Shown here: in pieces, positions 17,680-33,753 of the stretch
Position numbering within the stretch: position 1 is the first letter of the stretch
Layout of the letters: every line of letters begins with the position of its first letter
Assembly (NCBI GenBank): GCA_938092125.1
Contig: CALKMQ010000053.1
Coordinates: forward strand, 1-37,102
Source of the DNA: an uncultured bacterium
Lineage (GTDB): Bacteria > Fidelibacterota > Marinisomatia > Marinisomatales > UBA1611
DNA length: 37,102 bases
Direction of reading: 5' to 3'
Program-made: the position numbers and the translations under genes
The notes under the pieces: generated by a model
Told to the model about the DNA's origin: nothing
What the model saw: only the letters and a program-made list of their open reading frames with translations
Databases searched by the model: none

Positions 17680-17700
17680 ACCCGCTAGCCTAAGTTAAAA

Positions 17701-20700
17701 TTACTGATCGTAACCCATTACAATTTGAATAAGCCTTACCATATCCAAAATATTCACCATACCATCAGAATTTATATCTGCTAGATATGGGTTAAAATTT
17801 GTTTGATCTACAACGATATGGTCTATGAGAATAAGAAGATCATTCACATCAATCATTCCATCAGTATTTAAATCACCATCTAAACGTATTTCACTTCCAC
17901 GAGTGGTAATTAAAATCGCAGTTCCATCTGACAGAGGCATAGCTGCATCAGCATATGAATTATTAAAAGTATACTGTAGTCCTCGCTTCATCGTATGATC
18001 TTCAATACCTATGGTGCAATAGTTACCATGGATTTGACTCCAACTATAACTTCCATTGGAATCATTATTGAAATCTAAATATTGCATCAATATTTCACCA
18101 TCACCAGTAGGAGTAGTGTAATACATGGGGTCTTTTAAAATCACTTGAAATGTTTCAGGAGTATTATTTTGAAAAGTACGCACTCTAGACCATTGAACAA
18201 TAAACAGTTTATTAATTTCGTCATACCAAGTATAAACTCTGCCTGAATTTGTTAATTGTAAATCATCCCAAAAAACAGCGACCATTTTCCCTGGCCCTCC
18301 AGCACCTGGTAAAGGATAATTCCTAAATGAGCTTAAATCTGTTGCACCAAAGGATATCCACCCATTTGAACAAATACTTAAACTTTCATATTCTTGGCCG
18401 TAAAATCTAAAATTAAAAGGTAGGCTAACTGTCTGGACATCATCTCCATTATCGCCATTATCACTTAGAGAGTTTAAATACGTCCCATTTCCATCGTATC
18501 TAGCATCTATCTCAATCCAATCAAAAGATGGTGCAATAAGATAGTCTGTATCTCCACTATCATATATATAGTAGCCATGTTCATCTGGACCCATTGGATC
18601 ATTTTCCGACGGAATACCAATTTGAATTGTAATAACCGAAGAGGCTGAGTATCCATCATCAGAACTCAAAGAGACAATTAAATTAGCGATGGTTCCAGGA
18701 ATTACATCTTCTTCAGCGCGGATAATGAATGAATCCCCACTGTTTGAGCTAGAGCTATAGGAACCTGGATTGATTGATGACCAAGTAGCGGAATTATCAA
18801 CAATCTCTATTGCACTTGATGATGAGGTTATTTGACCTGTAATATTTTGTGCTACAGTGGACCCTATATTGTGTAATTGAATATGAACATTTGATATTTC
18901 CCCTGCTGACAAGACATCTTGACTACTACCAGAAACATCAATATTCGATGCATAAATATTTTTACCTGAAACAGAAAACTCTACATAACCTGTAGACAAA
19001 TAATCGTTGCTATTAGTGAGCGTTAGCAACAGTTTAATATTTGAATTATCATGCACATCGTTATTTACGCTAAATGTAAATGGGGACGAATCGTTACTAA
19101 CAATATCTCCTGATGTTAGATCTCCGTAAAAGAATGTATCATTTATAATTGTAACATTAGAATTTTCAGAAGAAAGAGTACCACTTATTTGGGAAGCATT
19201 TGCATTACCATAATTTGATACAGGAATAATCAGGTCTACTATTTCTCCAGAATTTATTTCTCCATCTCCGTTACCAATTGAAGAACCAGTTCCATTTTCA
19301 ATTAGGGATATGTTATCACCAAAAATATTTACACTGGCACCTGGATTGTAAATTTGAAAAGAGCTTTGATATGGGTAATGATTTTTTTTAGTAACTGTTA
19401 CAAGAATTTCGCCCTCCTGAACAATTGGAATCATTAATCGAATTGATCCGTTGGAGTCACTATAACCAGATTCTAAAACAGAACCTTCTTTATAAATTGT
19501 TACCCAAGCATCTTGCACAGGGTTGCCGCCACTGTTGGTAAGGGAAAAGTCTATAAAATTTGTACCTTTTGTTAAAGAATACAAATGCGATACATTTAGC
19601 ATTTCAGGATATTCTGTCCACATTTGAAGGGAGGCATCTCCCATGAGGCTATTCCAATGAGTGAAGGTAGAAACATATTGATTTGGGTTTGTAGGGTATG
19701 CTCGCGAAAGCCAAAGCTTACCAGCCATAAGAGCACCTCCAACTGAGTTTATATTTTCAACGATCGCGCCATGATAAAAACCCATATCAACCATATTATT
19801 AAACATAGTATGTGTACCTAGTGTTGCAGTACCGATACAAGCAACTGCAGCTCTTGGGTTTGAAGCAGTGCCAGCTCTTAAAAACGACTCAGATAATGAT
19901 TCTTCAGAACCGAAGGAACCTGTTCCACAGGTAATTACAGTGGCAATTGGAAGCATAAAACCATTATTTGAATTGCCCGGGTCATCATTTGTATAACCAC
20001 TTACACCGTAAAAACCTCTGTAATTAAAAAAGCCTACTCCATCATTAAGATTACTAGTCATCTGGCCAGGAAAATCCCCGGAATAAACAGTTCTTATGTC
20101 TTCATATCCATGATTTTGGAGAACTTCTTTAATATTATTATTTGTAATAATACATGAAACGCCTGAGGTAGAAGGGTCCCCAACTAAGCATGCTCTTTTG
20201 AACCAATTCTCACCCATATACGGGTTTGATTCATAATTAACAGTTTTACTTATAATAGTTTGTAAATGGCTTTGACTATCAAAAGAAAGCCGACCAACAA
20301 ATAATTCCGGGAATAAATCATTTCCAACTAATGTGGCATAAGGATGATCACCTTCTCCATTGTAACCACTCCAATTTTCAAAATGCGTTGGTATATCATA
20401 ACTACCTTCAGCATCGCCAACGATAGTAACATATTCTGGGGGATTGTCCCAACCTTCGTAAGCAGTTTCAATATAATCTTTAAGGTTATTGGAGTTATTT
20501 ACAATATTTGAACTAGATATATAGTTCACTTCATACCCCATTCTTTTTTTCCAATCCATAAGTACTTCAACCGTACCTAAAAGGTTTCCAATATTGTTTG
20601 GAAGAACATACAAAATCGAAGGTCTCTGATAAGGAATATTTTCACGATTTAAAGAAGAATAATTTGCAATCATTGACTCGTATAATGGCTCAAAAGCTCT

Positions 20701-21312
20701 TGACCGCTTTGAAGGATGAAACAACACTGCTTCACGATTACCATTTTCAACTAATTCTACTTCTATATCAATAAATTCTTCTAAGACCTTTTGATCAGGG
20801 TGATATCGAAATGGCGAAACTGTCAATGTAAGCAATGATAATTCTCGCATAGCCATCGGTTCAGATATCAAAGCAATATTAGCTGGATAATAATTATCAA
20901 TATCAGAATAGTTTGGTTCGGAGACTACGACTTCATTTGCGTTATTATCCCAAGAACCTTTTGCAACTAGATCAACATCATTAATAAAACGTGAAGAACT
21001 ATAGGTTACTTCAATTGAATAACTTTTATTTGGGTCAACTGCGATAAATGTTGTACTAGATGGCAAATCTGGCATTCCTGGCTCAGAAATTTGGCTAGAA
21101 TTTGAAAAAACCGGCTTTTTAAGAACTTTACCATTAACATCATTTTTGGATTCAATAATATATTCTGGCATAGTGTAGGTGATGAGACCGTTACCATTGT
21201 TTTTGACTTCATACTTAAACCCCGGATCTTTTGAAATAGACATTGGGCTTTCAGCACCAAATAATGTGTAGGAAAAAAATATAAACGATATAACTTTGAT
21301 TTTCATTTTCAA
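17701..21312 (-). CDS. Peptidase C25 (gingipain-like) family protein with propeptide-like N-domain, CARDB/Ig-like repeats, NIDO-like domain and C-terminal dockerin
   Basis: The likely real start is the ATG at 21306 (MKIKVISFIFFSYTLFGA). C25 blocks: YVTIVGD, ELFVGRLS, FFNYRGFYGVSGY, LPIATVITCGTGSF, SESFLRAG, LMGDASL. Propeptide-like LTLTVSPFRYHP. The C-terminus has two DxNxDGxxxxxD segments instead of a CTD. Confidence 0.9.
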   Translation of the reverse strand: MKMKIKVISFIFFSYTLFGAESPMSISKDPGFKYEVKNNGNGLITYTMPEYIIESKNDVNGKVLKKPVFSNSSQISEPGMPDLPSSTTFIAVDPNKSYSIEVTYSSSRFINDVDLVAKGSWDNNANEVVVSEPNYSDIDNYYPANIALISEPMAMRELSLLTLTVSPFRYHPDQKVLEEFIDIEVELVENGNREAVLFHPSKRSRAFEPLYESMIANYSSLNRENIPYQRPSILYVLPNNIGNLLGTVEVLMDWKKRMGYEVNYISSSNIVNNSNNLKDYIETAYEGWDNPPEYVTIVGDAEGSYDIPTHFENWSGYNGEGDHPYATLVGNDLFPELFVGRLSFDSQSHLQTIISKTVNYESNPYMGENWFKRACLVGDPSTSGVSCIITNNNIKEVLQNHGYEDIRTVYSGDFPGQMTSNLNDGVGFFNYRGFYGVSGYTNDDPGNSNNGFMLPIATVITCGTGSFGSEESLSESFLRAGTASNPRAAVACIGTATLGTHTMFNNMVDMGFYHGAIVENINSVGGALMAGKLWLSRAYPTNPNQYVSTFTHWNSLMGDASLQMWTEYPEMLNVSHLYSLTKGTNFIDFSLTNSGGNPVQDAWVTIYKEGSVLESGYSDSNGSIRLMIPIVQEGEILVTVTKKNHYPYQSSFQIYNPGASVNIFGDNISLIENGTGSSIGNGDGEINSGEIVDLIIPVSNYGNANASQISGTLSSENSNVTIINDTFFYGDLTSGDIVSNDSSPFTFSVNNDVHDNSNIKLLLTLTNSNDYLSTGYVEFSVSGKNIYASNIDVSGSSQDVLSAGEISNVHIQLHNIGSTVAQNITGQITSSSSAIEIVDNSATWSSINPGSYSSSSNSGDSFIIRAEEDVIPGTIANLIVSLSSDDGYSASSVITIQIGIPSENDPMGPDEHGYYIYDSGDTDYLIAPSFDWIEIDARYDGNGTYLNSLSDNGDNGDDVQTVSLPFNFRFYGQEYESLSICSNGWISFGATDLSSFRNYPLPGAGGPGKMVAVFWDDLQLTNSGRVYTWYDEINKLFIVQWSRVRTFQNNTPETFQVILKDPMYYTTPTGDGEILMQYLDFNNDSNGSYSWSQIHGNYCTIGIEDHTMKRGLQYTFNNSYADAAMPLSDGTAILITTRGSEIRLDGDLNTDGMIDVNDLLILIDHIVVDQTNFNPYLADINSDGMVNILDMVRLIQIVMGYDQ
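17713..17880 (-). other. Type I dockerin-like module (two Ca-binding loop/helix segments)
   Basis: DGDLNTDGMIDVNDLLILIDHIV ... ADINSDGMVNILDMVRLIQIVMG. This is a duplicated ~22-aa segment with the D-x-N-x-D-G-x-(I/V)-x-x-x-D pattern of dockerins. Confidence 0.75.
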
Positions 21313-21319
21313 ATCTCTT

Positions 21320-21967
21320 TTAATTAAATATTAAATAATGAAATATGTTAGGAAAATAAAAACTTCCAACAAAGGTTACAAGAGAGGCGATTGCTAGATA
21401 TGGCGCAAACGGCAATGCTCTGTTTCTATCAAAACCTTTAATAACAGCTATAATTATCCAAACGATTAAACTTAAAAATGATGCGCCAAAAAGTGTAAGT
21501 GCCATTCTCATTGGTCCTAGCCAAATACCTAAGACAAAGCCAAGTTGAATATCTCCATAGCCCATCCCTTGTCTTTTTGTAATAAGAAAAATAAGCCAAA
21601 TCAATGCTAGAGGTATTATGGAACCAACAACTACACCATAAAATGCAGTCTTATAATTAAATGTCCCATTTACAACACCATATAGAACTATTATAGACCC
21701 AACGACAATGAATAGAAGCGGAATTTGAAAAGTGTGAAAATCTACCCAGCTAATTGCAAAAAGCAATCCTGCAAGCAAGCTAAAAATTACAGCTTCCATT
21801 GGCGGCAATGCATAAGTACCCCACAGCCACGATAATGCGCAAAATGCTTCCATTTTGTAATCATTTTTTCTAATAAAAAATCCCTCGACATTCAACCAAT
21901 TAATAGAAAATTTTAATGACCTTGCGTAAAGATAACTGATGCATAATATTAAAAAGACATTTAACAT
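21320..21967 (-). CDS. pilD: Prepilin peptidase (A24 family), short form without the N-terminal methyltransferase/Cys-rich domain
   Basis: Polytopic membrane protein. First catalytic Asp context AISWVDFHTFQIP; second in RQGMGYGDIQLGFVLG (GxGD). ATG at 21967 lies 5 nt after the pilC stop; an alternative ATG is at 21853. At most 215 aa, with no CxxC pairs upstream of the peptidase core. Confidence 0.85.
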   Translation of the reverse strand: MLNVFLILCISYLYARSLKFSINWLNVEGFFIRKNDYKMEAFCALSWLWGTYALPPMEAVIFSLLAGLLFAISWVDFHTFQIPLLFIVVGSIIVLYGVVNGTFNYKTAFYGVVVGSIIPLALIWLIFLITKRQGMGYGDIQLGFVLGIWLGPMRMALTLFGASFLSLIVWIIIAVIKGFDRNRALPFAPYLAIASLVTFVGSFYFPNIFHYLIFN

Positions 21968-21972
21968 TTTTA

Positions 21973-23220
21973 TTATAAACCCGACTGTAATGCAGATCCA
22001 AGATGAAAGACTGGTAGATAAGTTAAAACAACCATAAGAGCAATAACAGCGCCTACCATCAATATTAGAAGAGGCTCAATCAAAGTAGTCATCCGTTCTA
22101 CCAAAGCGTTCACCTGCTTGTGATAATAATCAGCTGCTCTATCAAGTAAATCATCAATTTCCCCAGTTTCTTCACCTGTAGAAACAAGTTGAAGCAAAAT
22201 TGAGGGGAAAACTTCAGTTCTTCGAAGCGCTGTTGAGATATTGTAACCATCTCTAATATAATTTGACGCATCCTGAACTGCTTTTTCGTATACTTTGTTT
22301 CCAACTACTTTTTTTAATAGCACCATTGCTTCAAGAACAGGGACACCAGCACCAATCAAGATTCCAAAGGTTTTACAAAATTTATTTAGTATGGATTGAT
22401 TAAGCAAACTTCCAAACACTGGAATTTTCAATTTAACAGTATCAATGATGAATCCTCCACGCTGGGTTTTTGAAATTAAGAAAAGCACCAAAAACACAAC
22501 AATAAAGTTAAAAAACATAAAACCTAAATTTTCAGTTACCCAGGCACTCGCATCCATCATTTTTTTAGTTGCTCCAGGGAGCGATGCCCCAAGTTGAGAA
22601 TAGACTTCAGAAAACTTTGGAATTATCCAAATAAACATTGCTAATACCATACACCCTAGAAAAATGACCATAAAAATCGGATAAGTCATCGCCCCTTTTA
22701 CTTTTCTTCGAGTATCATCAAGATTTTCAAGGTATGAAGCCAACTGATCTAATATCTCATTTAAGTTTCCACTGACTTCACCAGCTTTTGTCATCGCAAC
22801 AAAAAGGTTATTAAAAACACCTGGATGACGAGATAATGATTCAGAAAGGTTTAATCCTTTACGGATACTAGAGCCTACTTCAGTAAGTATTTTTTTAAAC
22901 TTATTATGCTTTTCTTCAATAGAAAGAGCGCTTATAGCCCTTTCGAGAGTTAATCCAGCACTAAACATTGTAGCCAGCTGCCTAGTAAAGAACACAAGAT
23001 TTGCTAAAGGCACTCTATTTTTTAGTCTTTCGAAAGTCAGATTAATTTCATCAAGAAATGGCCCTAGAAAATCAAAAGTAGTATCAACCTCTTTTAAGGT
23101 AATAACGATCTGCCCATTCGCAGTGAGCTTTTGAATGGCTAAATCCATTGATTCAGCACGAATATCACCCTCAGACCTATTGCCTTCATCATTTTTAACT
23201 AAGTAATGGAATACGCTCAC
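21973..23220 (-). CDS. pilC: Type IV pilus platform protein PilC (GspF family)
   Basis: N-terminus SVFHYLVKNDEGNRSEGDIRAES is typical of PilC. Two T2SSF-like halves (FTRQLATMFSAGLTLERAI; FCKTFGILIGAGVPVLEAM) and three TM segments. GTG start overlaps the pilB TAG by 1 nt. Confidence 0.9.
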   Translation of the reverse strand: MSVFHYLVKNDEGNRSEGDIRAESMDLAIQKLTANGQIVITLKEVDTTFDFLGPFLDEINLTFERLKNRVPLANLVFFTRQLATMFSAGLTLERAISALSIEEKHNKFKKILTEVGSSIRKGLNLSESLSRHPGVFNNLFVAMTKAGEVSGNLNEILDQLASYLENLDDTRRKVKGAMTYPIFMVIFLGCMVLAMFIWIIPKFSEVYSQLGASLPGATKKMMDASAWVTENLGFMFFNFIVVFLVLFLISKTQRGGFIIDTVKLKIPVFGSLLNQSILNKFCKTFGILIGAGVPVLEAMVLLKKVVGNKVYEKAVQDASNYIRDGYNISTALRRTEVFPSILLQLVSTGEETGEIDDLLDRAADYYHKQVNALVERMTTLIEPLLILMVGAVIALMVVLTYLPVFHLGSALQSGL

Positions 23221-24941
23221 TATAAATCCTCGACAGTTGACCTCAACACTTCCTCAACACTAGTAGTGCCATCTAGGACTCTTTCATTTCCAGCGTCCCT
23301 AAGTGTTACCATCCCATTTTTAATAGCAGCCTGCCTTATTTCGTCTTCATTTGCACTATCAAAAACAAGTTTTCTTAATTCTCTTGCCATAGGAATCATT
23401 TCAAAAATAGCTGTTCTTCCTCTGTAGCCAGTATTTCTGCAATCGGTGCAACCTTTTGCTTTATTAAGCTCTCCTTTCACATCTTTAGTTTCTAATCCAA
23501 TCAATGCAAGTTCATCAGCCGTTGGAGCATATGATTCTTTACATTTATCACACAACTTTCTAACCAATCTTTGAGCCATAACTAAGTTTAGGCAAGAACC
23601 TACCAAAAATGGAGCAATTCCAATATCTAGCAATCTTGTTAAAGTACCCGGAGCATCATTAGCGTGAACAGTTGAAAAGACCAAGTGGCCTGTCAAAGAA
23701 AATTTAACAGCAATATCTGCTGTCTCCTCATCTCTAATCTCACCAATTAATAATACATCTGGATCTTGACGCAAGATTGATCGCAACGAAGAACCAAAGG
23801 TAAGACCGATATCTTCAAAAATCTGAACTTGGGTAATACCATCGAGTTGATACTCGACAGGATCTTCGACAGTAATAATATTTGTTTTTTCATCTTTTAT
23901 CTGCTTAAGTGCAGCATATAAAGAAGTTGATTTTCCAGAACCTGTCGGTCCCGATACAACGACCATGCCATAAGGTTGACTAATGACTTTTTTAAAAACG
24001 CTTAGATTTTTTTTAGGAAAGCCCAAGGTTGTAAGATTAAAATCAAATCCACTTTTGTCTAGCAACCTCATTACAATTTTTTCCCCATGCACTGTAGGTA
24101 AAATAGACACACGAACATCTAAGTCTTTTGCTGCTGTCTTGATAGAGAACCTACCATCTTGCGGTAATCTTTTTTCTGCGATATTAAGTTTTGACAATAT
24201 TTTTATTCTTGTAACTAGGCCGCTAAGAGAAGTAGACGGCGGAGTCATAATAATTTGAAGAACACCATCAATACGTATTCTCACATTTACTTTGCTCTCT
24301 TGCGGCTCAACGTGGATATCTGTAGCGCGCTCTTTTATTGCTTCCTGTAGAATTAAATTAACTAGCTTTACTATTGGAGCATCTTCATCGCTAGCATTCT
24401 CTGGGGATAGGTCTACCTCTTCTGCTGAATCCTCATCTCCTGAAATAACAGTAATACCTTGTATAGCCTCTTCAACTTTACCTGCTTTTGTAATTTCACC
24501 ATAAAGTTGATCCATCGCTTTATTAATTAAATCAAAACCAGCGACAACAATGTCGGGCTCTAAACCAGTTAAACGTTTCACTGAATCTATCGTGGCAATA
24601 TCTTCAGGATCTTCCATCACTATCGTGACAGCACTATCTGATCTTTTTACCGCTAAAACTGAATTAGATCTAGCAAAATCTTCAGGTATTAAACCAACTG
24701 CATCTTGATCTGCTTCCAAAAGCAAAAAATTATCTGCTTTACGATATCCCATTTGCATTGAGTAAGCTGTAATAAAATCATCTTCGTCAATATACCCCAT
24801 AGAAATCAAAACTTGCCCTAATTTTTCATTAGTCTTTTTTTGTTCAGCTAACGCACTATTTAATTTGCTTTCATCAATTTTTGAAGCATGAATTAAAATT
24901 TCGCCAATTTTTTGAAATTGCGGATTAAAATCACTAGCCAT
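23220..24941 (-). CDS. pilB: Type IV pilus assembly ATPase PilB (GspE family) with MshEN/T2SSE_N-type N-domain
   Basis: Walker A VSGPTGSGKST, Asp/His boxes, Walker B DVLLIGEIRD, and tetracysteine CDKC...CTDCRNTGYRGR. I place the start at the ATG 24939-24941 (MASDF...), which overlaps the upstream TAA as TAATG. The ORF track extends to a GTG at 24950. Confidence 0.93.
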   Translation of the reverse strand: MASDFNPQFQKIGEILIHASKIDESKLNSALAEQKKTNEKLGQVLISMGYIDEDDFITAYSMQMGYRKADNFLLLEADQDAVGLIPEDFARSNSVLAVKRSDSAVTIVMEDPEDIATIDSVKRLTGLEPDIVVAGFDLINKAMDQLYGEITKAGKVEEAIQGITVISGDEDSAEEVDLSPENASDEDAPIVKLVNLILQEAIKERATDIHVEPQESKVNVRIRIDGVLQIIMTPPSTSLSGLVTRIKILSKLNIAEKRLPQDGRFSIKTAAKDLDVRVSILPTVHGEKIVMRLLDKSGFDFNLTTLGFPKKNLSVFKKVISQPYGMVVVSGPTGSGKSTSLYAALKQIKDEKTNIITVEDPVEYQLDGITQVQIFEDIGLTFGSSLRSILRQDPDVLLIGEIRDEETADIAVKFSLTGHLVFSTVHANDAPGTLTRLLDIGIAPFLVGSCLNLVMAQRLVRKLCDKCKESYAPTADELALIGLETKDVKGELNKAKGCTDCRNTGYRGRTAIFEMIPMARELRKLVFDSANEDEIRQAAIKNGMVTLRDAGNERVLDGTTSVEEVLRSTVEDL

Positions 24942-27211
24942 TATGGACACCCCACTGTTGTTTGTGTACGTACTAACTGTATGTCTAGCGGATCACTTGT
25001 TGTAATCTGTGGTATTAATAAAGTAGAAGAGATTGAGGCACTAAAATCTTCAAAAGTACAAATACCAGTCTCATCATCTGTTGCTTGCCAAATACATAAT
25101 TCCCTAGGGAATACAGCTATAATTCTTGCATACCCATCTTGGTCAGTTCTAACAATTGGTTCGCAGTTAATCATACTGTAGCCATCCCATTTTCCATTAC
25201 CCTCACCGAGGTCATTCGTGTTTGGAGCTTGATCTACACCATTGTCACTAAAAGGCTCTGAGACCTCTTGAACATCAAATTTTCCATCACCATCAATATC
25301 AAAAGCATCATGTTCCTCATTAAATGTCCCCATATCAGCGGTTTGAGAACTATCATCAGCACCATAATCTCTCCAACTAAAACAACCGTTGTCCTCGCCT
25401 GTATTTGCAACACCATTTATTCCGACATCCTCATAAAGTTCATAACCAAGTTCTCTCCAGGCTTCAACACCTGTGCCAACAAAAGATATTGGCGCATTTA
25501 CAACTGGGTTACCATAAAAATCAATCAAAATTGCTGTGATTGTTATCTCTACTTCATTTGTTGGCGCAGGAAGAGAGAAGTCGTGGTATGTAGCACTTGC
25601 TGTTAACGATAATTCACCAGGAAGAAAAAACAATGCTGCATCTCCAACATCTTCATTTATCAAAGCAGAAACAGAATCAGCAATCGTATCTTCATCCGGA
25701 CCATCTGAACCAAATGTAGTTGCTTTAACTCTTCCAAAATCCCCAATAGCATCTGTTGAGTAAACTAGTTCACTATAAGCCACCCCTTTGTTTGCGTCAC
25801 CGTCTAGATTTTCATTGCCGGTGAAGCTAATACCTTCGACAAATGCATCAATTAAAGTATCAGGCGCAATTGGATCTATTGACCAATAAACGTAGGTTGA
25901 ATCTTCAACGGGGTTGTACCATTTATCATAAACTATTGCTGCACATTGGGTTTTATAAAACCCACCACCGATCGGTTCTGTTGAATTTGGATCATATTCT
26001 GGCTCAATGTAGTAAGGAGCGCCAGAAGCTATAATTACAGGTACTGCATTTGCGTTAATCTCATAATCTCCATCCTCATCACAATCTACACTAGCTTCCA
26101 CCCTAATTGGTCCAGGAACAGTGCCACTATTAATAGATACGGTTGCAATTCCATTAATTGTGAAAACGCTGGTATCTGTGACTCCCGGCTCTTCTAAGTA
26201 TGCACCTTCCATAATTGGATTCAAAACGAAGCGAATTAATCTAGGTTCATCTATAAGGTTCTCATTATCATCAAAAAGTTTAGCCTTTATTGAAGTAGAC
26301 TCAATTCCTCCACCATCCCTAACAACAATATTATCAGGCACTGATGATGCAATTTCTACATATGTACATTCTTGAACTAAGCCTACCTGAGTAACAATTG
26401 AGATAGTAGAAGAGTCAATAACGGAGGAACTAATGGAAGGGTGCTGAAACAACGCTTTAACTGTAGCAATACCAATATTTTCTTGCTCGCCATAATCGTG
26501 AAAACTAAATGTTATCTCACCATTATTATTGGTTGTGTCCGAGTCAACAACATTATCATCAATTTTTATATATCCTTTTTCACCAGCATCAATTTGAACA
26601 ATGACGTTTCTTACAGGAGTACCGTTCTTATTTAATAGTCTGCATGTAATATCAGACGGAGTATCTGATGCTAATGTTATTTCTTCAGGATTGGGAGCAG
26701 TCATTGTAAAAGTATAAGGCCATATATCGTCTTTTGAACCATAGACATCAAACCTAGTTGACGCTTCTAAATTTTCTCCGTAATAAGCTGTAATCTCAAC
26801 ATTTTCAAAAATAGGGGTAGTAGGATTATCAACAGCACCACTGCCACTACTAACATTATACGTTACAAAGGCTGAACCATCAGAACCAGTTGTTACTGTA
26901 TTGACATCAAAACTGCCTATAGATTTATAAGAGGAACCTTCTAAAGCCTTTGCACTAAAAGATATAACACCCCCTTTAACCGGATCTCCATCAGCGTCTC
27001 TTAGCTCAACAATTAAAAAGACACCAGCATATCCAACAACTGCTTCGCCAACGGTGCTGCCACTTGCTACAGGCTGCGCTTCAATAAAAGCAAGTGTTAA
27101 GCCATCTTCTGTGACTGAAGCACTCACTTTACGATCGTCACAACTCAAAGATGAAAAAATTAGAATAATTGAGAAACTAACTAAAATAGATTTAAATGTA
27201 TTTATTATCAT
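24941..27211 (-). CDS. Large lipoprotein with several Big_1/invasin-like Ig domains and an acidic Ca-binding-like, Cys-containing C-terminal region
   Basis: AAGGAG-N6-ATG. Lipoprotein signal ILIFSSLSC-D. Repeated Ig-like units (LIVELRDADGDPVKGGVISFSA...TTGSDGSAFVTYN; ITCRLLNKNGTPVRNVIVQIDA...NNNGEITFSF; ITAILIDFYGNPVVNAPISFVG...TDQDGYARIIAVF). EF-loop-like DCDEDGDYE and DIDGDGKFD. Confidence 0.75.
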   Translation of the reverse strand: MIINTFKSILVSFSIILIFSSLSCDDRKVSASVTEDGLTLAFIEAQPVASGSTVGEAVVGYAGVFLIVELRDADGDPVKGGVISFSAKALEGSSYKSIGSFDVNTVTTGSDGSAFVTYNVSSGSGAVDNPTTPIFENVEITAYYGENLEASTRFDVYGSKDDIWPYTFTMTAPNPEEITLASDTPSDITCRLLNKNGTPVRNVIVQIDAGEKGYIKIDDNVVDSDTTNNNGEITFSFHDYGEQENIGIATVKALFQHPSISSSVIDSSTISIVTQVGLVQECTYVEIASSVPDNIVVRDGGGIESTSIKAKLFDDNENLIDEPRLIRFVLNPIMEGAYLEEPGVTDTSVFTINGIATVSINSGTVPGPIRVEASVDCDEDGDYEINANAVPVIIASGAPYYIEPEYDPNSTEPIGGGFYKTQCAAIVYDKWYNPVEDSTYVYWSIDPIAPDTLIDAFVEGISFTGNENLDGDANKGVAYSELVYSTDAIGDFGRVKATTFGSDGPDEDTIADSVSALINEDVGDAALFFLPGELSLTASATYHDFSLPAPTNEVEITITAILIDFYGNPVVNAPISFVGTGVEAWRELGYELYEDVGINGVANTGEDNGCFSWRDYGADDSSQTADMGTFNEEHDAFDIDGDGKFDVQEVSEPFSDNGVDQAPNTNDLGEGNGKWDGYSMINCEPIVRTDQDGYARIIAVFPRELCIWQATDDETGICTFEDFSASISSTLLIPQITTSDPLDIQLVRTQTTVGCP

Positions 27212-27223
27212 ATAAGGCTCCTT

Positions 27224-28726
27224 TTATTCTTCGCCTGATTCAATTTGTTCTGGTAACGAAGAAGCGTCATTCCAAATTCCTTCGTATGTGGACGTATTTT
27301 CTAATTCGACCTCACCAAGGTCTGAGTTCTTTGCAGTACCATCTTCACTTTTCCCAAGAAGATTTTTTTCAAATGACCTCATTCGATTGGTTTTCATAAT
27401 ACCAGTATAGTTATCAACTACAATCCTTGGTGTTATCTGTATAATTAAATCTGTTTTCCTTTCAACAAGGTTTTTACTGGTGAATATTTTTTCACCAAAC
27501 CAAGGAATTTTGTGCAATATTGGAACTTTGTATAAAGTTTGTTTTCTATCATTACTTAACAAACCACCAATGATAATACTTTCACCATCCTTAACTCTAA
27601 TAGTAGTTGATGATTTTCTACTTTTTACTCGAGGTATATTATTGTCAGGACCAATAAATTCAAAAATTGTAGAAACCTCTGGCTCAACTTTCACTGTGAT
27701 AAAACCATCTGTATTTACAGTAGGATTTATCTCTAGCTTAATACCGACTTCTTCTCGCTGAACTTGTACCTGACCACCCACACCCCCAGAACTGAGAATA
27801 TATGGAACAATATCAACGAGCTTAATAGAAGCCTCTCTTCCATTAAGTGTCGTAAGCCTTGAATCAGCTAAAACTTCTGCTTGATTTGCTTTCATTAACA
27901 TATCTAGAGTCACATCAAAAGCCGTCATTTGCCGACTAAAGTATCTAGGCACAATTTGACTACCATCATTCAAGTCTGATTTAAGCGGGTCAAAAGGCAT
28001 TGTTGTTGGCTTTTGTCCAATAGTCTGGTCATCTGGCACGACAGAACCACCTGTTGTTTCATCTAACGCATTTTCTGCTAAGATTGTCGTAAACTTTGAA
28101 AGCCTTGACCAATCAATGCCAAGTTGCTCTTCATTGTCTGCAGCAACTTCAATTAAACGAGTTTCCAACATAATTTGAATAGCAGGAATGTCGATCTGCT
28201 TGACGACTTCTTGAATCTCAGCGATTTTTTTAGGCGAAGCATTTACCAAAAGTTTATTCCCTGATATATCGACCTGAATTTGGTCAGATATGTCTTGCAG
28301 CATGGATTTTATTTCCTGCGCAGAAGCGTATTTTAATTCAATCACATAAGACGTTACCCCTACCTCTTCCTTTAATTTTTTTGGATCAGCAATTAAAAAT
28401 GAATTGCCAACAACTTCATAACTCAATCCAACTGCGCGAACAACTAAATTAATTGCCTGCTCTATAGGAACATCATCTAAATGAATAGATATTTTTTCTT
28501 GCCTGTTCACATTGGGGTCGGTCACAATATTGTAACCACTTTCTTTTGCAAGTATTGCAAGAATACTCGGTAAATGAGCATCTTCTGCGTGGACTGTAAC
28601 CAAATTAAGATCTTCTGATTGATCTGGAAGTCCATCTAAAGCACCGGAGCCTTGACCAAAAATCGTCAAAATGGATAATGATATGTAAATGATAAATTTT
28701 CTTAAGGACTGCATATTACTGTTCAC
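27224..28726 (-). CDS. pilQ: Type IV pilus secretin PilQ (secretin family)
   Basis: The likely start is the ATG at 28714 (MQSLRKFIIYISLSILTIFG) behind AAAGGTG; the ORF track begins at a GTG at 28726. STN/N0-like LPSILAILAKESGYNIVTD...VPIEQAINLVVRAVGLSYEV. N1-like YVIELKYASAQEIKSML. Secretin core VLADSRLTTLNGREASI...IPRVKSRKSSTTIRVKDGESIIIGGL...KVPILHKIPWFGEKIF...DLIIQITPRIV. Confidence 0.88.
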   Translation of the reverse strand: MNSNMQSLRKFIIYISLSILTIFGQGSGALDGLPDQSEDLNLVTVHAEDAHLPSILAILAKESGYNIVTDPNVNRQEKISIHLDDVPIEQAINLVVRAVGLSYEVVGNSFLIADPKKLKEEVGVTSYVIELKYASAQEIKSMLQDISDQIQVDISGNKLLVNASPKKIAEIQEVVKQIDIPAIQIMLETRLIEVAADNEEQLGIDWSRLSKFTTILAENALDETTGGSVVPDDQTIGQKPTTMPFDPLKSDLNDGSQIVPRYFSRQMTAFDVTLDMLMKANQAEVLADSRLTTLNGREASIKLVDIVPYILSSGGVGGQVQVQREEVGIKLEINPTVNTDGFITVKVEPEVSTIFEFIGPDNNIPRVKSRKSSTTIRVKDGESIIIGGLLSNDRKQTLYKVPILHKIPWFGEKIFTSKNLVERKTDLIIQITPRIVVDNYTGIMKTNRMRSFEKNLLGKSEDGTAKNSDLGEVELENTSTYEGIWNDASSLPEQIESGEE

Positions 28727-28732
28727 CTTTCG

Positions 28733-29272
28733 TTAAATCTTACCTCGTTTAAAATCTTCCGCACTAATTTCTAAAGCATTTTGTCTGTCAGTACCTGGAG
28801 CAGGATAAGAGAGGATTTTATTTTCTCTTTTAATAATTACCTGCTTTTCATCAATATGTACCACCTCACCTAAGCTTGGAATATTTTCACCACGAGTGGC
28901 ATTATAAATATTCCCTCTATAATTTAATTGGGCCTGAAACTTATTCTGACTTTGGTATATCATCGCTATTCTTAAAGCACTACGACTTCTTCTATTGCTT
29001 GGACCGCTACCATCAGCTAAGGTAAGGACATTTGTAAGACGCATAGGTTGTTTTTCTAATGAAAACTGGTAATAGCCTCTTTGCTCTAAACGTTGTTCTA
29101 AATATTCAATAACATTTTCTAAATCTTTATCGGTTCCAAAAGTTCTTGAAGACTTAGCAATAATTTTTCTATATTTTTTATTTTTTGGGTACAAACTAAA
29201 TCCACCAGCTACAATCGAAAGAATTGCAAATGTTATTAGAAGCTTCCAAATAGTAAGGGACCGTTCACTCAT
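28733..29272 (-). CDS. PilP-like inner-membrane-anchored pilus alignment protein (assigned mainly by position)
   Basis: N-terminal TM WKLLITFAILSIVAGGFSL. C-terminal small beta-domain pattern GENIPSLGEVVHIDEKQVIIKRENKILSY. Sits between pilO and pilQ exactly as pilP does. Confidence 0.45.
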   Translation of the reverse strand: MSERSLTIWKLLITFAILSIVAGGFSLYPKNKKYRKIIAKSSRTFGTDKDLENVIEYLEQRLEQRGYYQFSLEKQPMRLTNVLTLADGSGPSNRRSRSALRIAMIYQSQNKFQAQLNYRGNIYNATRGENIPSLGEVVHIDEKQVIIKRENKILSYPAPGTDRQNALEISAEDFKRGKI

Positions 29273-29274
29273 AA

Positions 29275-29844
29275 TTAACCTTTCGACCTAGATTTTACCA
29301 GAGTAATTGTAGCAAGATTTAACTCAAACACTTGCTCTAATAAATCATCTTCTGAAACATTTGTTTTTACTCGTTCAATACCATTTTTAACTTCATACTC
29401 ATTCAAAGTTATTAATCTAGGCGATCGCTCAATTTCAGCTAAAAACTTTCCAAACTCATCATAACTGCACTCAATCGTAATCACATATGGAGATTTATAG
29501 TAATCTCCTTTATTTACCCTATCCTTAGGCTTTATACCTAATAGTTGTATGTCTAAATCATCTAGTATATCTGTTAGAGCATTTAAAAAAGGAAGGCTAG
29601 CATCTTCAGCTAATGAGTCTTGTTGAGACAAAGCTAGGTTTTCTTGGAAAAGAGTATAAACTCGATCAAGTTTACTTGCGAGGATTTGAGCACTGATTAA
29701 GTTTTCATTTAGCTCGGTTTCTTCTTGTTCTAAGAGTTTTATTTTTAATGGCTTTTCACCAATGAAAAATGAAGAACTGACCCAATAAGTAATTGTCAAA
29801 ATAATTATCGCACCAAATAAAATGATATTTCTTTTTTCCGCCAT
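29275..29844 (-). CDS. pilO: PilO-like pilus alignment protein
   Basis: I place the start at the ATG at 29844, 1 nt after the pilN stop (MAEKRNIILFGAIIILTITYW). TM, coiled coil, then YYKSPYVITIECSYDEFGKFLAEIERSPRLITL, the usual PilO C-domain pattern. The ORF track extends to a TTG at 29886. Confidence 0.6.
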   Translation of the reverse strand: MAEKRNIILFGAIIILTITYWVSSSFFIGEKPLKIKLLEQEETELNENLISAQILASKLDRVYTLFQENLALSQQDSLAEDASLPFLNALTDILDDLDIQLLGIKPKDRVNKGDYYKSPYVITIECSYDEFGKFLAEIERSPRLITLNEYEVKNGIERVKTNVSEDDLLEQVFELNLATITLVKSRSKG

Positions 29845-29845
29845 A

Positions 29846-30436
29846 TTATGAATATACCTTACTACCACCTTTTTTGATTGAGGCAATCACTTCAAAACGA
29901 ATAATATTTTGTCCACGAATATTCACCTTTTGATGACCAACATATTTGATCCGAGAAAAATTCTCCGAAAATTCTTTATTACTTCTCAATGTTTGGACAT
30001 ATTCATCAATAATTTCGAAATCTTTTCTGTCTTCAAAAGTTAAAGCGATTCCTTTAATTGTTAATTTATCCCTTTTAAACTTCATTCCAGTTATCGCCAT
30101 ATCATCAGGAGTCATTTTGCCTAATAATTCCATATTCCTCGCCCAGAGGAATCTGTCTTGTTCTAGGTCAGCAAAAGACATAATATCATTTTTGGATAAA
30201 TTTTTACCTTTAGATTGCAACTGCTTAATTTGATTTTCAAGCTGAACAATTTGATTTTTCTTTTTATTAATTACGGAGTTATATCCAACCCCAATCATCA
30301 AAACTCTAATATTGATAAATACTAAACTAAATATCAAAATTCCAAAAACAACCCATCTCGTACGCTCAAGAACTCTCTCCTTAAGAACCTCTGAACTCTC
30401 AGCTTTATTTAAATTGATTTTAATATAGGTTTTCAT
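29846..30436 (-). CDS. pilN: PilN-like pilus alignment protein
   Basis: The ATG at 30434-30436 overlaps the pilM TAA as TAATG (MKTYIKINLNK..., compare the PilN INLLP motif). Single TM WVVFGILIFSLVFINIRVLMIG, coiled coil, then an alpha/beta C-domain. The ORF track extends to 30460. Confidence 0.65.
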   Translation of the reverse strand: MKTYIKINLNKAESSEVLKERVLERTRWVVFGILIFSLVFINIRVLMIGVGYNSVINKKKNQIVQLENQIKQLQSKGKNLSKNDIMSFADLEQDRFLWARNMELLGKMTPDDMAITGMKFKRDKLTIKGIALTFEDRKDFEIIDEYVQTLRSNKEFSENFSRIKYVGHQKVNIRGQNIIRFEVIASIKKGGSKVYS

Positions 30437-31488
30437 TATTCCATACCTGCTCGAATACATAATCCCATCGCAAGGACATATTGACTCGGGTTTTCCAGAC
30501 TCAAAGATTCAGCACCATCAAAACCTTCGAATGGATTCAAAATATCACAATCTATATTTAGTTTGGAGCTTATTAGTCCAGCTAAACCTGGCGTTCCGGC
30601 CGCTCCTCCTGTCAATAAGATTTTCAAGAAAAAACTCTGCCCGGTTTGCTTAGCATAAAACCTTAAACTTCTTCGAAGATCTTCAATAAGATTATCATAA
30701 ACTGATCTTTCCGCAACACCCAGAGTAGTCTGATCTTCACTTGCTTCATTTTTTAAAATTGAGGCAACACCATCTCTAAAAAGAATATCTTGAGCCTCCG
30801 TATAGCTAATATCTTTTTTGTCAACAATTTCTTTAACAAACTGATGACCACCGATAGGCAAATCTCTAGTAAAATATTGCTGCCCGTTACCCCATACAAT
30901 TAGACTCGATGACAAAGCTCCTATGTCTAAAATAACGGCTAATCCTTCAGATGGCATATCTTTTAAATACGTAAATGAATTTGTAATTGCGATTGGATCT
31001 GCATCTATTACGCCCGGCTTTAAACCGCTTTCCTTTAACAAATCCATATGGGATGTCAATACTCCTTTTGTACAAGCAACGAGACTTACATCTATTTTAT
31101 CAACTTCTTTTTCATTTGAACCTAATATTTGATAATCGATTACTGCATCAGTTCCATCCATAGGAATATGCTTTCTTGCTTCAAACGTCATCGCAGATTC
31201 CAACTCCTCTGCAGGCATTTCCATTGTAGTAATTTGCTTAACACTTGCAGACGCACCGCTAATACCTGTTGCAATTAATTTAATTTTTTTCGGATTCAAA
31301 TTTTGCTGTTTTAACAATTCTTTTATAGCCATAATCCAATGATGAGTATCAATTTTATCTGGATCAAAAGCTTGATTAGGTTCAGGCACTAATCTTTGAC
31401 CAGCATATAATAGTTTATAACCGTCTTTGGTCTTATTCATCGCAACAAGTTTGATATATTGTCTTCCAATATCTAATCCAACAAACAC
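30436..31488 (-). CDS. pilM: Type IV pilus assembly protein PilM (actin-like ATPase fold)
   Basis: GTG start behind AAAGGAGA. FVGLDIGRQYIKLV phosphate-1 motif, VILDIGALSSSLIV, LLTGGAAGTPGL. 350 aa. Followed by pilN/O. Confidence 0.88.
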   Translation of the reverse strand: MFVGLDIGRQYIKLVAMNKTKDGYKLLYAGQRLVPEPNQAFDPDKIDTHHWIMAIKELLKQQNLNPKKIKLIATGISGASASVKQITTMEMPAEELESAMTFEARKHIPMDGTDAVIDYQILGSNEKEVDKIDVSLVACTKGVLTSHMDLLKESGLKPGVIDADPIAITNSFTYLKDMPSEGLAVILDIGALSSSLIVWGNGQQYFTRDLPIGGHQFVKEIVDKKDISYTEAQDILFRDGVASILKNEASEDQTTLGVAERSVYDNLIEDLRRSLRFYAKQTGQSFFLKILLTGGAAGTPGLAGLISSKLNIDCDILNPFEGFDGAESLSLENPSQYVLAMGLCIRAGME

Positions 31489-31509: not shown

Positions 31510-33753
31510 TTAACTATCATCGCCTAGCTCACCATAGGATGCCATTTTGAGTATTACGTTATTATTCACATCAACTTGGTCTGGGTAATAAGGAGGAGGA
31601 TTCATGCGTAAATTCCAATCGTAATGAAAATTCTTATCATAACCCACTCCAGGAGACACATTGTAAGGCCCAGGGTAATTTCTTAGCAAATAGCCTCTTT
31701 TTTGTTGCACAATAGAACCCCATAAGTGAATAACCCCGCGCTTATCATTCGTATTTGTATAAAGACCATTATTTTCTTGAGATCTAAAATTATTTCTGTG
31801 ACCACCTCTACCATCAGCAATATAACCGTAGGACAAATTATCATTCCAATCATGATATGCCACAAGAGTATTTTGCCAATAATGAGAAATAAATCCACCA
31901 TAAAGCGCCATTATTGAAGCATTAATTTTAATATCAGAATCATAAAGCTGTCCTCTGGCACCATTAGGTCGAGTGTTAGCGATGATTACACTACCACCAG
32001 CAACGAGACCAAGGACATTTTGAGTACCTCCATCATCTGGATGCACAATAGCTCCATTGGCATATGAATCAGCATAAACTATATCGTCAATGAGCCAAAT
32101 ATTGCCCCAAACTCGGTCTACAATACTTTGATTGTCATGCCGTCTGTATTCTGTATAGTCATCCGTAACAACAGTATACTGTCCTCCTACTTGCCCTCTA
32201 ATTAATACTTGACCACCTTTAACATAGATAACCGATGGGCCAGAATAGGGGTAAAACAGTCTCTGCATATAAACGTAATCACTATTGTAAATTTGATCAG
32301 GGCAAGAAAAGATATCACAATTCAAGCCACTCAAACCGCCTGCGTTCCAATAATCAAAATCAAAATGATGCCTTCCACCAGGAGGACAATACTCTAAACC
32401 ATCATCTTCATGATCATGGTAATATTTAAAATCGTTCCATTCGACATCTTCTGCTAGACCTGAAGAAGCACTTGTATTTACCAACGTGATAGCTTCTCCA
32501 TCAGTAAAACCCTCTTCTGAAGCGGAAACGAAGTTAATCGATTCGGAATTTATTTGAATCATTACACGGTCTTCACCAATTGGAATTGGGTCATTTATCA
32601 CTGCAAATGAAACAGATTTAGAAATATCTGGATTTGCCAACCTCAGAATATCACCAGCACTAATGGTACTAATAAGGGTTGCTCTAATATTTTCTCCAGA
32701 GGCATCCAACGCGCTTAGTATGATGAAAGTACCTTCATAACCGATTCCCGGTATGAAGGCATTATCAGGACCAAAATGAACACTGGAAACATTCACATTT
32801 AATGCAGTACTTAAACCATCCCAAATATAATCGAACTCATTCGGAGGGCCACCAATAGGTGGAATGTTGTACCACCATTGAGATGCCCAAAAGCCACTTG
32901 GAGTAAAATTAATTTCTGTCATTACCAAAGTATCTTTTTTACCAGTTCGAAAAAGCATATTATCGGCATCAAACACATAGTCAGCATTTGCTCTAACAAG
33001 CTGAGCAGAGTTTTCAGGCGGAAATGTTATCGTAGCTATAGTATCAAGTATGTTTACTGATTCACCATCAATATTTTGTTCAAAGACGCCTTCATCGCAG
33101 GCACCCCAAGAACCTATGCCACCCCCATTATCAACTGCTTCATTCGTAATTGTAACGGAGCCTGAGAATTCAGGACATCCATAACTACTAAAGACCATAT
33201 CGCCATTTGTGTGAACCCTACCTTCGAGTTGATCATTGGTACCAAAGTTCACGGTCCCAGTATTTCCAGGACCAATAGGTTTTTCTTCATTTGTAAAATA
33301 CATAAAATCTTCAAAACCTTGAGCCTGCATTGTCATAAATACTGTACGCTCAATGGGATCTACTTTATCCCCGAAACTAGTAATAGGAGTCGCTTCACCA
33401 GTTGAATAAACATAATATAATTTTCTAGTTGAATTTTGCTCTAATTCTGTTCGAGCATAAATGTTTTTGTATTTACCAATAGGAGAACCATATTCATTTT
33501 TCCCATAATTTTTTCCTTCTGGGTACAACAATGTGTCCTCAGTTACCAGTTGAGGCAAAATCACAACGCCAACCTCATTTAGACCTGCTTCAGCAGCGTA
33601 CAGAGCTCGGTGTTCAGCATATCGATACTCTTCCAAAACAGATAAATTAAATGAACTTTTAAGATACGCAGCGGTAAAAACCATGCTTACCAAGGTAAAT
33701 AACATTGCTAGTGGAGCAGCACTACCCTTATTATGAAATTTGAGACTGGTCAT
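31510..33753 (-). CDS. Large PilX_N-type pilus-associated protein (candidate tip/adhesin component)
   Basis: N-terminus KGSAAPLAMLFTLVSMVFTAAYL resembles the PilX N-terminal hydrophobic segment, with no Glu at +5. 747 aa of Gly/Asn/Tyr/Trp-rich beta-type sequence (GRVHTNGDMVF, LVAGGSVIIAN). Follows the two minor pilins with a 23-nt overlap. Confidence 0.55.
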   Translation of the reverse strand: MTSLKFHNKGSAAPLAMLFTLVSMVFTAAYLKSSFNLSVLEEYRYAEHRALYAAEAGLNEVGVVILPQLVTEDTLLYPEGKNYGKNEYGSPIGKYKNIYARTELEQNSTRKLYYVYSTGEATPITSFGDKVDPIERTVFMTMQAQGFEDFMYFTNEEKPIGPGNTGTVNFGTNDQLEGRVHTNGDMVFSSYGCPEFSGSVTITNEAVDNGGGIGSWGACDEGVFEQNIDGESVNILDTIATITFPPENSAQLVRANADYVFDADNMLFRTGKKDTLVMTEINFTPSGFWASQWWYNIPPIGGPPNEFDYIWDGLSTALNVNVSSVHFGPDNAFIPGIGYEGTFIILSALDASGENIRATLISTISAGDILRLANPDISKSVSFAVINDPIPIGEDRVMIQINSESINFVSASEEGFTDGEAITLVNTSASSGLAEDVEWNDFKYYHDHEDDGLEYCPPGGRHHFDFDYWNAGGLSGLNCDIFSCPDQIYNSDYVYMQRLFYPYSGPSVIYVKGGQVLIRGQVGGQYTVVTDDYTEYRRHDNQSIVDRVWGNIWLIDDIVYADSYANGAIVHPDDGGTQNVLGLVAGGSVIIANTRPNGARGQLYDSDIKINASIMALYGGFISHYWQNTLVAYHDWNDNLSYGYIADGRGGHRNNFRSQENNGLYTNTNDKRGVIHLWGSIVQQKRGYLLRNYPGPYNVSPGVGYDKNFHYDWNLRMNPPPYYPDQVDVNNNVILKMASYGELGDDS

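Follow-up and report, generated by a model that had tools for sequence, protein, structure and literature searches.

A 37,102-nucleotide stretch of DNA from an uncultured bacterium of the Fidelibacterota (contig CALKMQ010000053.1, assembly GCA_938092125.1; hereafter the window) contains a type IVa pilus (T4aP) operon with one extra gene, which encodes a 756-residue predicted lipoprotein built of immunoglobulin-like (Ig) domains. We found that this gene, the target of the present analysis, is a fixed, co-transcribed member of the operon, lying between the secretin gene and pilB. Few bacterial machines have been studied as well as type IV pili, whose parts lists derive for the most part from work on proteobacteria, Myxococcus, and Thermus. 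The Ig-chain lipoprotein is an additional and invariant component of this T4aP operon, and nothing like it is found among the pilus components described so far. Comparison with known systems suggests a tentative reading, possible rather than probable, in which the target is an InvL/PulA-like surface lipoprotein or adhesin that would be exported by its own type IV pilus machine.

An extra gene is fixed between the secretin and PilB genes

The target gene and its two junctions have the following positions in the window.

24941–27211, minus strand: target gene, ATG start, encoding a 756-residue lipoprotein with five Big_1/macroglobulin (MG)-like β-sandwich domains (list of open reading frames, Pfam, AlphaFold2, homologues)
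27218–27223, minus strand: Shine-Dalgarno sequence AAGGAG, abutting the secretin stop codon and 6 nucleotides ahead of the target ATG (sequence reading)
24939–24943, minus strand: TAATG, in which the target stop codon TAA shares its last A with the pilB ATG (sequence reading; not conserved in relatives)

On the minus strand, the upstream junction reads TAA-AAGGAG-CCTTAT-ATG, with the secretin stop codon at 27224–27226. An initial annotation, made from the sequence, had correctly described the 756-residue open reading frame between pilQ and pilB; it also placed an AAGGAG site 13 nucleotides past the pilQ stop, where the site is real but abuts the stop codon, and it is the ATG that lies ~13 nucleotides past it. 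At the other end, the ATG in TAATG opens PilB as MASDFNP, whereas the list of open reading frames extends PilB to a GTG at 24950; both candidate starts overlap the target reading frame. Terminator-like sites occur across the window no more often than chance, with none at either target junction, and a promoter scan of the window gave no signal above chance.

Relatives of the protein are numerous, with more than 335 homologues in a word-indexed search and 266 representatives in an exhaustive HMMER search. The window sequence is identical to a 416-kb contig of an uncultured marine metagenome-assembled genome (L006), and relatives are labeled Candidatus Marinimicrobia, Neomarinimicrobiota, or Fidelibacterota. 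Family members are named in databases as ‘hypothetical protein’, ‘Ig-like domain-containing protein’, or ‘invasin domain 3-containing protein’, and our searches of the literature about Marinimicrobia and Cloacimonadota pili and about Ig-like lipoproteins with secretins yielded no description of the target protein. We aligned 19 sequences (A1) and 45 sequences (A3), and used a further alignment, A4, that is less diverse than A3. Gene order was read in 85 loci found with A4, 80 of them from genomes chosen one per species (GTDB) and five from metagenome contigs, in which the window's pilus proteins were located by tblastn.

PilB is encoded 3′ of the target in 82 of the 85 loci, and the remaining three stop at a contig edge. 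Likewise, the secretin gene lies 5′ of the target in 69 loci, the other 16 contigs beginning inside the target. The order secretin-target-pilB-pilC is thus kept in every informative locus; nowhere among the 85 does the secretin gene adjoin pilB directly, and no other gene lies between them in that set. Members at 22–36% identity (L004, L005, L086, L087, and L088) keep the same order, with genes beyond pilC/pilD varying by locus. These distant members include L086, labeled Candidatus Cloacimonadaceae, and another family member is labeled Candidatus Stygibacter frigidus. The gene is therefore present in Fidelibacterota (Marinimicrobia), Cloacimonadota, and at least one further lineage of Fibrobacteres-Chlorobi-Bacteroidetes (FCB) type. 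All 12 family members whose genomic context was checked individually are surrounded by the pilus locus. Two large, mostly uncultured phyla, which abound in the ocean interior and in anaerobic digesters, carry an additional invariant gene in their core pilus operon.

In seven loci with gene calls, the secretin-target junction measures at most 22 nucleotides or is an overlap, and the target-pilB gap ranges from overlap to ~290 nucleotides. Because the second distance varies and the first is tight, the tie to the secretin gene is general and the TAATG coupling is local; the proposed coupling to pilB holds for the window sequence and fails as a general trait. Marine metatranscriptome contigs covering 23440–26843, 26817–27901, and 26937–27759 cross both junctions at even depth, although carry-over of DNA is possible. 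Together with the same slot in all informative loci, distant relatives included, these RNA contigs bear out the earlier proposal that the protein is integral to the pilus locus and made with the machinery. The accompanying statement that canonical T4aP loci have nothing between the pilMNOPQ and pilBCD blocks was loosely put, as the two blocks usually form separate loci in model proteobacteria.

A horizontally acquired passenger gene is rejected on account of the conserved synteny, a GC fraction (0.382) similar to that of its neighbors (0.35–0.38), and the lack of tRNA genes in the window. Lack of conservation or mobile-element hallmarks had been named as grounds for rejecting an integral role; the 85 loci keep the gene, which has no compositional or mobile-element hallmarks. 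A secretin-based search for outgroup loci returned, among the matches listed, near-identical Marinimicrobia secretins only.

Four loci (L015, L061, L078, and L084) carry a Marinimicrobia-type locus under the labels Marinoscillum, Winogradskyella, or Lentisphaeria. The gene coordinates of L061 are the same as in the Marinimicrobia contig L060, with identity values that are nearly the same, and the labels of all four probably reflect mis-binned contigs.

Predicted architecture of the lipoprotein

The target can be divided into a signal peptide, a short post-cysteine motif, a two-domain stalk, and a three-domain head.

27143–27211, minus strand: signal peptide, residues 1–23; the lipobox ends in L-S ahead of Cys24 (translation, alignments)
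27131–27142, minus strand: motif C-D-D-R (C+1, D+2, R+4) past the site cut by signal peptidase II, a putative sorting or recognition signal (N-terminus counts)
26381–27115, minus strand: stalk, Ig1 (residues 33–160) and Ig2 (161–277), with the Big_1/MG4 match at 187–244; the pair is present in one, two, three, or more copies in relatives
24944–26380, minus strand: head, residues 278–756, composed of Ig3 (278–395), Ig4 (396–510), and Ig5 (511–592 and 685–756) (AlphaFold2, per-region identity)
25160–25435, minus strand: acidic insert of ~92 residues (593–684) inside Ig5, flanked by the invariant C610 and C683 (composition, alignments, model confidence)
25265–25300, minus strand: EF-hand-type 12-residue loop D638-I-D-G-D-G-K-F-D-V-Q-E649, a putative Ca2+ site
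26060–26086, minus strand: second DxDxDG-type loop, D376-C-D-E-D-G-D-Y-E384, in Ig3 (sequence, alignment)

Judged by eye against the PROSITE-type lipobox rule, the N-terminus has a lipoprotein signal, with K7, hydrophobic residues 8–21, and L-S-C24. Every sequence of A1 has C24, and conservation of this residue stays at 90% or above in A3 and A4, which are more divergent. By its sequence, the target is a Sec/signal-peptidase-II lipoprotein whose mature part consists solely of β-sandwich domains, with the acylation itself predicted. The mature protein is acidic (pI 4.05). Pfam has one Big_1 domain (PF02369) above threshold, at residues 187–244 (40.5 bits versus a cutoff of 34.9), and MG4 passes its cutoff on the same stretch (33.6 versus 24.7). 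A second Big_1 match, on Ig5, is sub-threshold at 22 bits. No NCBIfam family matches the target, and Pfam identifies no catalytic domain in it. A PDB search with the single protein gave chance-level matches to fatty-acid-binding proteins and weak matches to EF-hand calcium-binding proteins, and the family profile gave nothing.

The AlphaFold2 model of the full protein, computed from a 60-sequence alignment, is all-β, with five sandwich domains, a predicted local distance difference test score (pLDDT) of 72.5, and a predicted TM-score (pTM) of 0.36. The model is best described as confident domains joined by flexible links. In contrast, residues 278–756 modeled alone give a pLDDT of 86.2 and a pTM of 0.72, and the head is therefore a defined, rigid three-domain unit. 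These results agree with the initial annotation, which had proposed at least four invasin-like Ig domains; of the invasin-type profiles, Big_1 scores above its cutoff, while Invasin_D3 stays below (24.3 versus 33).

Foldseek searches with the full and head models returned tandem Ig/MG arrays only, at TM-scores of 0.14–0.28. Matched proteins comprise complement C3/C4/C5, α-2-macroglobulins (those of E. coli and Salmonella among them), integrin legs, the S-layer protein SbsB, and the invasin InvE. Because of these low TM-scores, the similarity is to a domain type, not to a particular protein, and gives no clue to function. The head has no sequence match or specific fold match to described pilus components in Pfam, NCBIfam, the PDB profile search, or the listed Foldseek matches.

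The acidic insert splits Ig5, so that the strands ahead of it (ITAILIDFYGNPVVNAPISF) and behind it (VRTDQDGYARIIAVF) are two halves of one Big_1-type domain. It has a lower pLDDT and no regular secondary structure in the AlphaFold2 model, and it is missing from Cloacimonadota-type relatives (A4 consensus). Within the insert, the D638–E649 loop is canonical at EF-hand positions 1, 3, 5, 6, 9, and 12 (D638, D640, D642, G643, D646, and E649). In A1, E649 does not vary, and D638 and D646 each reach at least 90% conservation. The Pfam EF-hand_1 match covers the loop only and is sub-threshold (E 0.05), with no flanking helices in the AlphaFold2 model. Among Marinimicrobia members, the Ig3 loop residues D376, C377, D378, D380, and G381 are each conserved at 90% or more. 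An acidic segment with two EF-like motifs had been described earlier: DIDGDGKFD (638–646) does lie inside it, but DCDEDGDYE (376–384) sits in Ig3. Both Ca2+ binding and the role of the C-D-x-R motif are predictions drawn from sequence.

The protein has ten cysteines (24, 190, 282, 377, 423, 610, 683, 706, 718, and 755), of which C610, C683, and C706 are invariant and C718 is at least 90% conserved. The spaced cysteines attributed to a C-terminal region are present, but the region is not separate and corresponds to the second half of Ig5 plus the insert.

A conserved N-terminal motif and a stalk of variable length

The consensus following the lipobox cysteine is C-D-x-R-x-P; of 110 distinct family N-termini, 97 have D at +2 and 90 have R at +4. 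C-D-x-R is kept in members at 22–30% identity, including Cloacimonadota proteins. None of about six non-family lipoprotein-like N-termini from the same genomes carries it, a sample too small for comparison. The frequent Arg at +4 raises the thought that the precursor is cut past this residue by an Arg-specific C25 (gingipain-type) protease, freeing the Ig chain from the lipid as in Bacteroidia type V pilins, and a C25 peptidase gene does follow pilD in the window (17701–21312) and in most Marinimicrobia loci. However, the motif is kept in L004, L005, L086, and L088–L090, whose loci have no C25 gene, and no type V pilin match was found in Pfam or among the listed Foldseek matches. We consider such cleavage very improbable.

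The Ig1-Ig2 unit (A1) is present once in the window protein, twice in relatives of ~960 residues, and three times in those of ~1200 residues. Reading frames in the fetched loci range from ~645 to 2014 residues and cluster near 750, 965, and 1205. Proteins sharing a 99–100% identical head can still be one whole stalk pair apart (1201 versus 967 residues; 1218 versus 985 residues). Against relatives at ~50% overall identity, the stalk is 29–30% identical, Ig3 54%, Ig4 70%, the most conserved, and Ig5 58–60%.

Weighing surface export against a periplasmic role

The target combines a lipid anchor, a conserved distal end, a spacer of variable length, and a gene locked to the pilus operon. In the export mechanism that we propose, Cys24 would be lipidated on the periplasmic face of the inner membrane, and the C-D-x-R beside the lipid would divert the protein from the default lipoprotein route, after which it would be passed on to the pilus machine. 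The machine would move it via the PilQ channel to the surface, as a type II secretion system (T2SS) does with PulA and InvL. There, the protein would stay lipid-anchored, its conserved head held off the cell by the length-variable stalk. Head and retractile pilus may then act together in attachment to a conserved ligand, with Ca2+ possibly stiffening the protein in marine lineages.

Several observations favor this mechanism, among them the fixed place in the pilus operon, an all-Ig build with a poorly conserved stalk and a well-conserved head, and an acidic mature protein with conserved Cys residues and loops of Ca2+ type. A difference of one stalk pair between proteins with 99–100% identical heads is common for surface stalks and speaks against a periplasmic strut that spans a fixed distance. 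In Acinetobacter baumannii, the invasin-like lipoprotein InvL has multiple Ig domains and no barrel, and its surface display needs the T2SS secretin (PMC9245377). PulA and InvL are both lipidated and then exported by the T2SS, and the residues right past the acylated Cys form a motif required for export (PMC12802150). Since T2SS surface lipoproteins carry a required motif at exactly these positions, the post-Cys C-D-x-R may serve export. The target has no type IX secretion system (T9SS) sorting domain (neither Por_Secre_tail nor CHU_C in Pfam), whereas five other open reading frames of the window do, and it is therefore not T9SS cargo. That the T4aP is a dedicated exporter of this stalked lipoprotein, with C-D-x-R as a new sorting signal to the pilus machine, appears rather unlikely to us. 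If the target is cargo, it would show that lipoproteins can be installed on the cell surface by retractile pili, and it would define a new sorting signal; the principle known from PulA and InvL would then reach beyond the T2SS, to retractile pili as well as to the FCB superphylum.

Several points weigh against this route. Cargo genes are seldom so immovable inside machine operons. We found no precedent for T4aP export of a lipoprotein, and the machine encoded here, with PilT and PilMNO, is a T4aP rather than a T2SS. Lipoprotein export in A. baumannii needs the AsmA-like protein GspN (PMC12802150), and no GspN gene is present in the target locus. C-D-x-R fits neither the T2SS motifs (GGG, ND(N/D); PMC12802150) nor the Bacteroidetes export signal (PMC5080379), and it could instead serve simply to retain a periplasmic protein at the inner membrane. 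The surface localization is itself predicted by comparison. A structural subunit fits equally well because the gene is universally present and its head evolves about as slowly as PilM and PilO. The tight secretin junction in all relatives likewise suits a stoichiometric secretin partner as well as it suits cargo.

The main rival is a periplasmic structural accessory, which could account for these last points. Its head would dock either on the secretin, which is short and lacks an AMIN domain, or on the PilNOP platform, and its role would resemble that of TsaP, a pilotin, or MshM/N, a reading that we hold doubtful; it is similarly doubtful that such a protein would aid secretin assembly or tie the secretin to the rest of the envelope. 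The target gene invariably comes next to that of the secretin, at junctions of at most 22 nucleotides, and it occurs in every observed instance of the locus. The head has a machine-like rate, with a mean p-distance of 0.50 compared with 0.44 for PilM/PilO and 0.57 for the protein in the PilP position. The secretin is minimal, with N0, a single N1, a C-terminal tail, and no AMIN domain (Pfam), and the pilus cluster contains no tetratricopeptide repeat (TPR) pilotin gene. MSHA loci have two accessory genes, mshM and mshN, in the interval from the secretin to the MshE ATPase, a slot like that of the target before its MshE-type ATPase. In enterobacteria, an Asp at +2 is the classical signal for retention in the inner membrane (PMC12802150). 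In addition, two even more distant loci, L089 (7281–8906) and L090 (7191–8915), have a gene between the secretin and the Ig lipoprotein that encodes a Poly_export and SLBB protein of 541–574 residues, of the Wza/OPX-like, periplasmic-ring type. No other type IV pilus operon is known to us to contain a ring protein of the polysaccharide-export type. L090 also has a T9SS-type neighbor.

Other features do not suit such an accessory. The three-fold length range (~645–2014 residues) and the differing stalk copies at identical heads are unlike a fixed-geometry spacer. The target shares with pilotins a lipid anchor and a gene adjoining that of the secretin, but pilotins, TsaP, MshM, and MshN have unrelated folds (TPR, lipocalin-like or small α/β, LysM with an FlgT-like domain, AAA+), are far smaller, and have no variable stalk. 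No pilotin (PilF/PilW/Tgl, PulS/AspS) or TsaP (LysM) family matched the target at E 0.1 or better in Pfam or NCBIfam, and the PDB family profile found nothing. A mirror-tree analysis in 44 loci, with partial correlations between the head and each of PilM, O, P, Q, and B, indicated no specific co-evolution with PilQ (partial r ~0, compared with 0.27 for PilO and 0.23 for PilB), a weak method whose result we take as uninformative. If the target is a scaffold, it would reveal another way in which a minimal secretin is supported.

An ordinary surface adhesin that leaves by general FCB lipoprotein export, and shares the operon for co-regulation without a physical link to the machine, would agree with the generic Ig stalk and head and with structural matches confined to Ig arrays (InvE, SbsB, integrin legs, complement MG). 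It would also agree with the mirror-tree result for PilQ and with the acidic residues past the Cys, which are found in Bacteroidetes lipoprotein export signals too (PMC5080379). Nevertheless, the order of the genes is fixed across phyla even where their surroundings differ, the 12 individually checked members all lie in a pilus locus, and C-D-x-R is unlike the published export consensus, C-X-K-(D/E)2 or S-D-D-D-D (PMC5080379). This makes the ordinary adhesin improbable.

Three roles had been offered for the target initially: a secretin-associated pilotin or strut, a pilus-presented adhesin, and a secreted substrate. The evidence leans toward a machine-exported surface lipoprotein and speaks against both a pilus-presented adhesin (lipid anchor) and a classical pilotin (size, fold, and variable length). 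We reject an adhesin at the pilus tip by inference, as the family-wide N-terminal lipid anchor is incompatible with travel on the fiber. Whichever role applies, the target offers a precise starting point for initial genetic or structural studies of the pili of these phyla, and its gene is a marker for this pilus type in metagenomes.

Comparison with known systems

In its working, the target may be most like InvL and PulA, a likeness that we propose with reserve, as it would use a T4aP, an in-operon gene, another post-Cys motif, and no GspN. Both InvL and the target are barrel-less lipoproteins with a chain of invasin-type Ig domains, and InvL display relies on a machine of the type IV filament family with its secretin. 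The two proteins differ in that InvL has a C-type lectin-like cap, compared with only Ig domains and the Ca2+-loop insert in the target. InvL is also GspN-dependent T2SS cargo with the motif GGG, whereas the target carries C-D-x-R, its export is predicted, and its machine is a T4aP with PilT and PilMNO.

The pullulanase PulA of Klebsiella is encoded beside its own machine and has Asp at +2. It is a lipoprotein that a dedicated secreton, and not Lol, brings from the inner membrane to the surface (PMC9245377). In contrast to the target, which lacks a catalytic domain and is encoded inside the operon of a T4aP, PulA is an enzyme that uses a T2SS, with pulA outside the secreton operon.

Invasin and intimin share with the target Big_1 domains (one above threshold in the target), an Ig stalk with a distal binding module, and a variable number of stalk domains. 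They differ from it in their N-terminal outer-membrane β-barrel, with or without LysM, and their C-terminal lectin-like tip. The target has no barrel, LysM, or lectin family in Pfam, and its N-terminus is a lipobox; it is thus not an inverse autotransporter but a lipid-anchored protein encoded in a pilus operon.

Bacterial α-2-macroglobulins are lipoproteins, and the MG domains of α-2-macroglobulin (E. coli ECAM, 5a42; Salmonella, 4u48) and of complement C3/C5 are the structures that the full model matches best (Foldseek E 1e-8 to 1e-12), in line with the Pfam MG4 match. The target, however, is at most half their size, aligns at TM-scores of 0.14–0.2, and lacks the thioester CxEQ, bait region, thioester-containing domain (TED), CUB, and receptor-binding domain. 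None of its ten Cys is in a CxEQ context, and MG4 is the sole Pfam match among models of the α-2-macroglobulin family.

TcpF and CofJ resemble the target as non-pilin proteins that are encoded in a type IV pilus operon and depend on that machine. They differ in being soluble and unlipidated, with unrelated folds, and they belong to type IVb systems of enteric pathogens.

The surrounding pilus locus

In the direction of transcription, the locus consists of the major pilin, pilT, two minor pilins, a 747-residue protein, pilM, pilN, pilO, an open reading frame in the PilP position, the secretin, the target, pilB, pilC, and pilD.

35882–36289, minus strand: major pilin (Pfam N_methyl)
34827–35879, minus strand: pilT (Pfam T2SSE)
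34348–34824 and 33731–34351, minus strand: two minor pilins (Pfam N_methyl)
31510–33753, minus strand: 747-residue protein without a family (faint DUF4900 match only)
30436–31488, minus strand: pilM (Pfam PilM_2)
29846–30460, minus strand: pilN (Pfam PilN)
29275–29886, minus strand: pilO (Pfam PilO)
28733–29272, minus strand: open reading frame in the PilP position, 179 residues, with an N-terminal transmembrane helix in place of a lipobox and no Pfam match
27224–28726, minus strand: PilQ-type secretin with STN/N0, one Secretin_N (N1), and Secretin domains and a C-terminal tail of ~60 residues (Pfam, NCBIfam, tail comparison)
23220–24950, minus strand: PilB extension ATPase with an N-terminal MshEN domain, of the type that binds cyclic di-GMP (c-di-GMP), and T2SSE (Pfam, NCBIfam)
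21973–23220, minus strand: pilC (Pfam T2SSF)
21320–21967, minus strand: pilD, prepilin peptidase (Pfam Peptidase_A24)

With PilM/N/O, secretin, PilB, PilC, PilD, PilT, and N_methyl pilins all matched in Pfam, the cluster is a type IVa pilus. PilQ is the top NCBIfam match of the secretin, under the model cutoff, and pilT_fam that of pilT, somewhat under its curated cutoff. PilB scores 456 bits with Pfam T2SSE and 607.9 bits with the NCBIfam PilB model, just under the cutoff of 675.65. Its MshEN domain (NCBIfam NF053729, E 6e-16) is found on PilB in every related locus with gene calls read, and pilus extension may be controlled by c-di-GMP. The secretin tail (27224–27415, residues ~437–500) contains a segment conserved in relatives, GI.KT..M..E, followed by a variable, very acidic end, and recalls the S-domain through which T2SS secretins bind pilotins. 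The 747-residue protein occupies the position usual for PilY1-type proteins, after the minor pilins, and keeps this place in L001–L005 and L088–L090. The order from the major pilin to this protein is also found in L001–L005 and L088. In L004, the counterpart of the reading frame in the PilP position carries SH3_3/SH3_4 domains.

Past pilD (14915–21312), the window encodes a 1203-residue C25 (gingipain-family) peptidase (17701–21312) and then poly-γ-glutamate synthesis genes, namely a CapB-like gene with Mur_ligase_M and CapC. The peptidase ends in a dockerin-type module and not in a T9SS domain, and most Marinimicrobia loci have its gene at this place, unlike those of the Cloacimonadota type. 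Poly-γ-glutamate has been linked to Cloacimonadota physiology in a recent preprint (10.1101/2025.11.11.687785). The five open reading frames with a C-terminal T9SS sorting domain (Por_Secre_tail) are located at 541–2241, 3442–6615, 6594–8918, 8949–11984, and 36431–37102, and the T9SS-sorted products of the window include a second C25 peptidase and an M14 carboxypeptidase.

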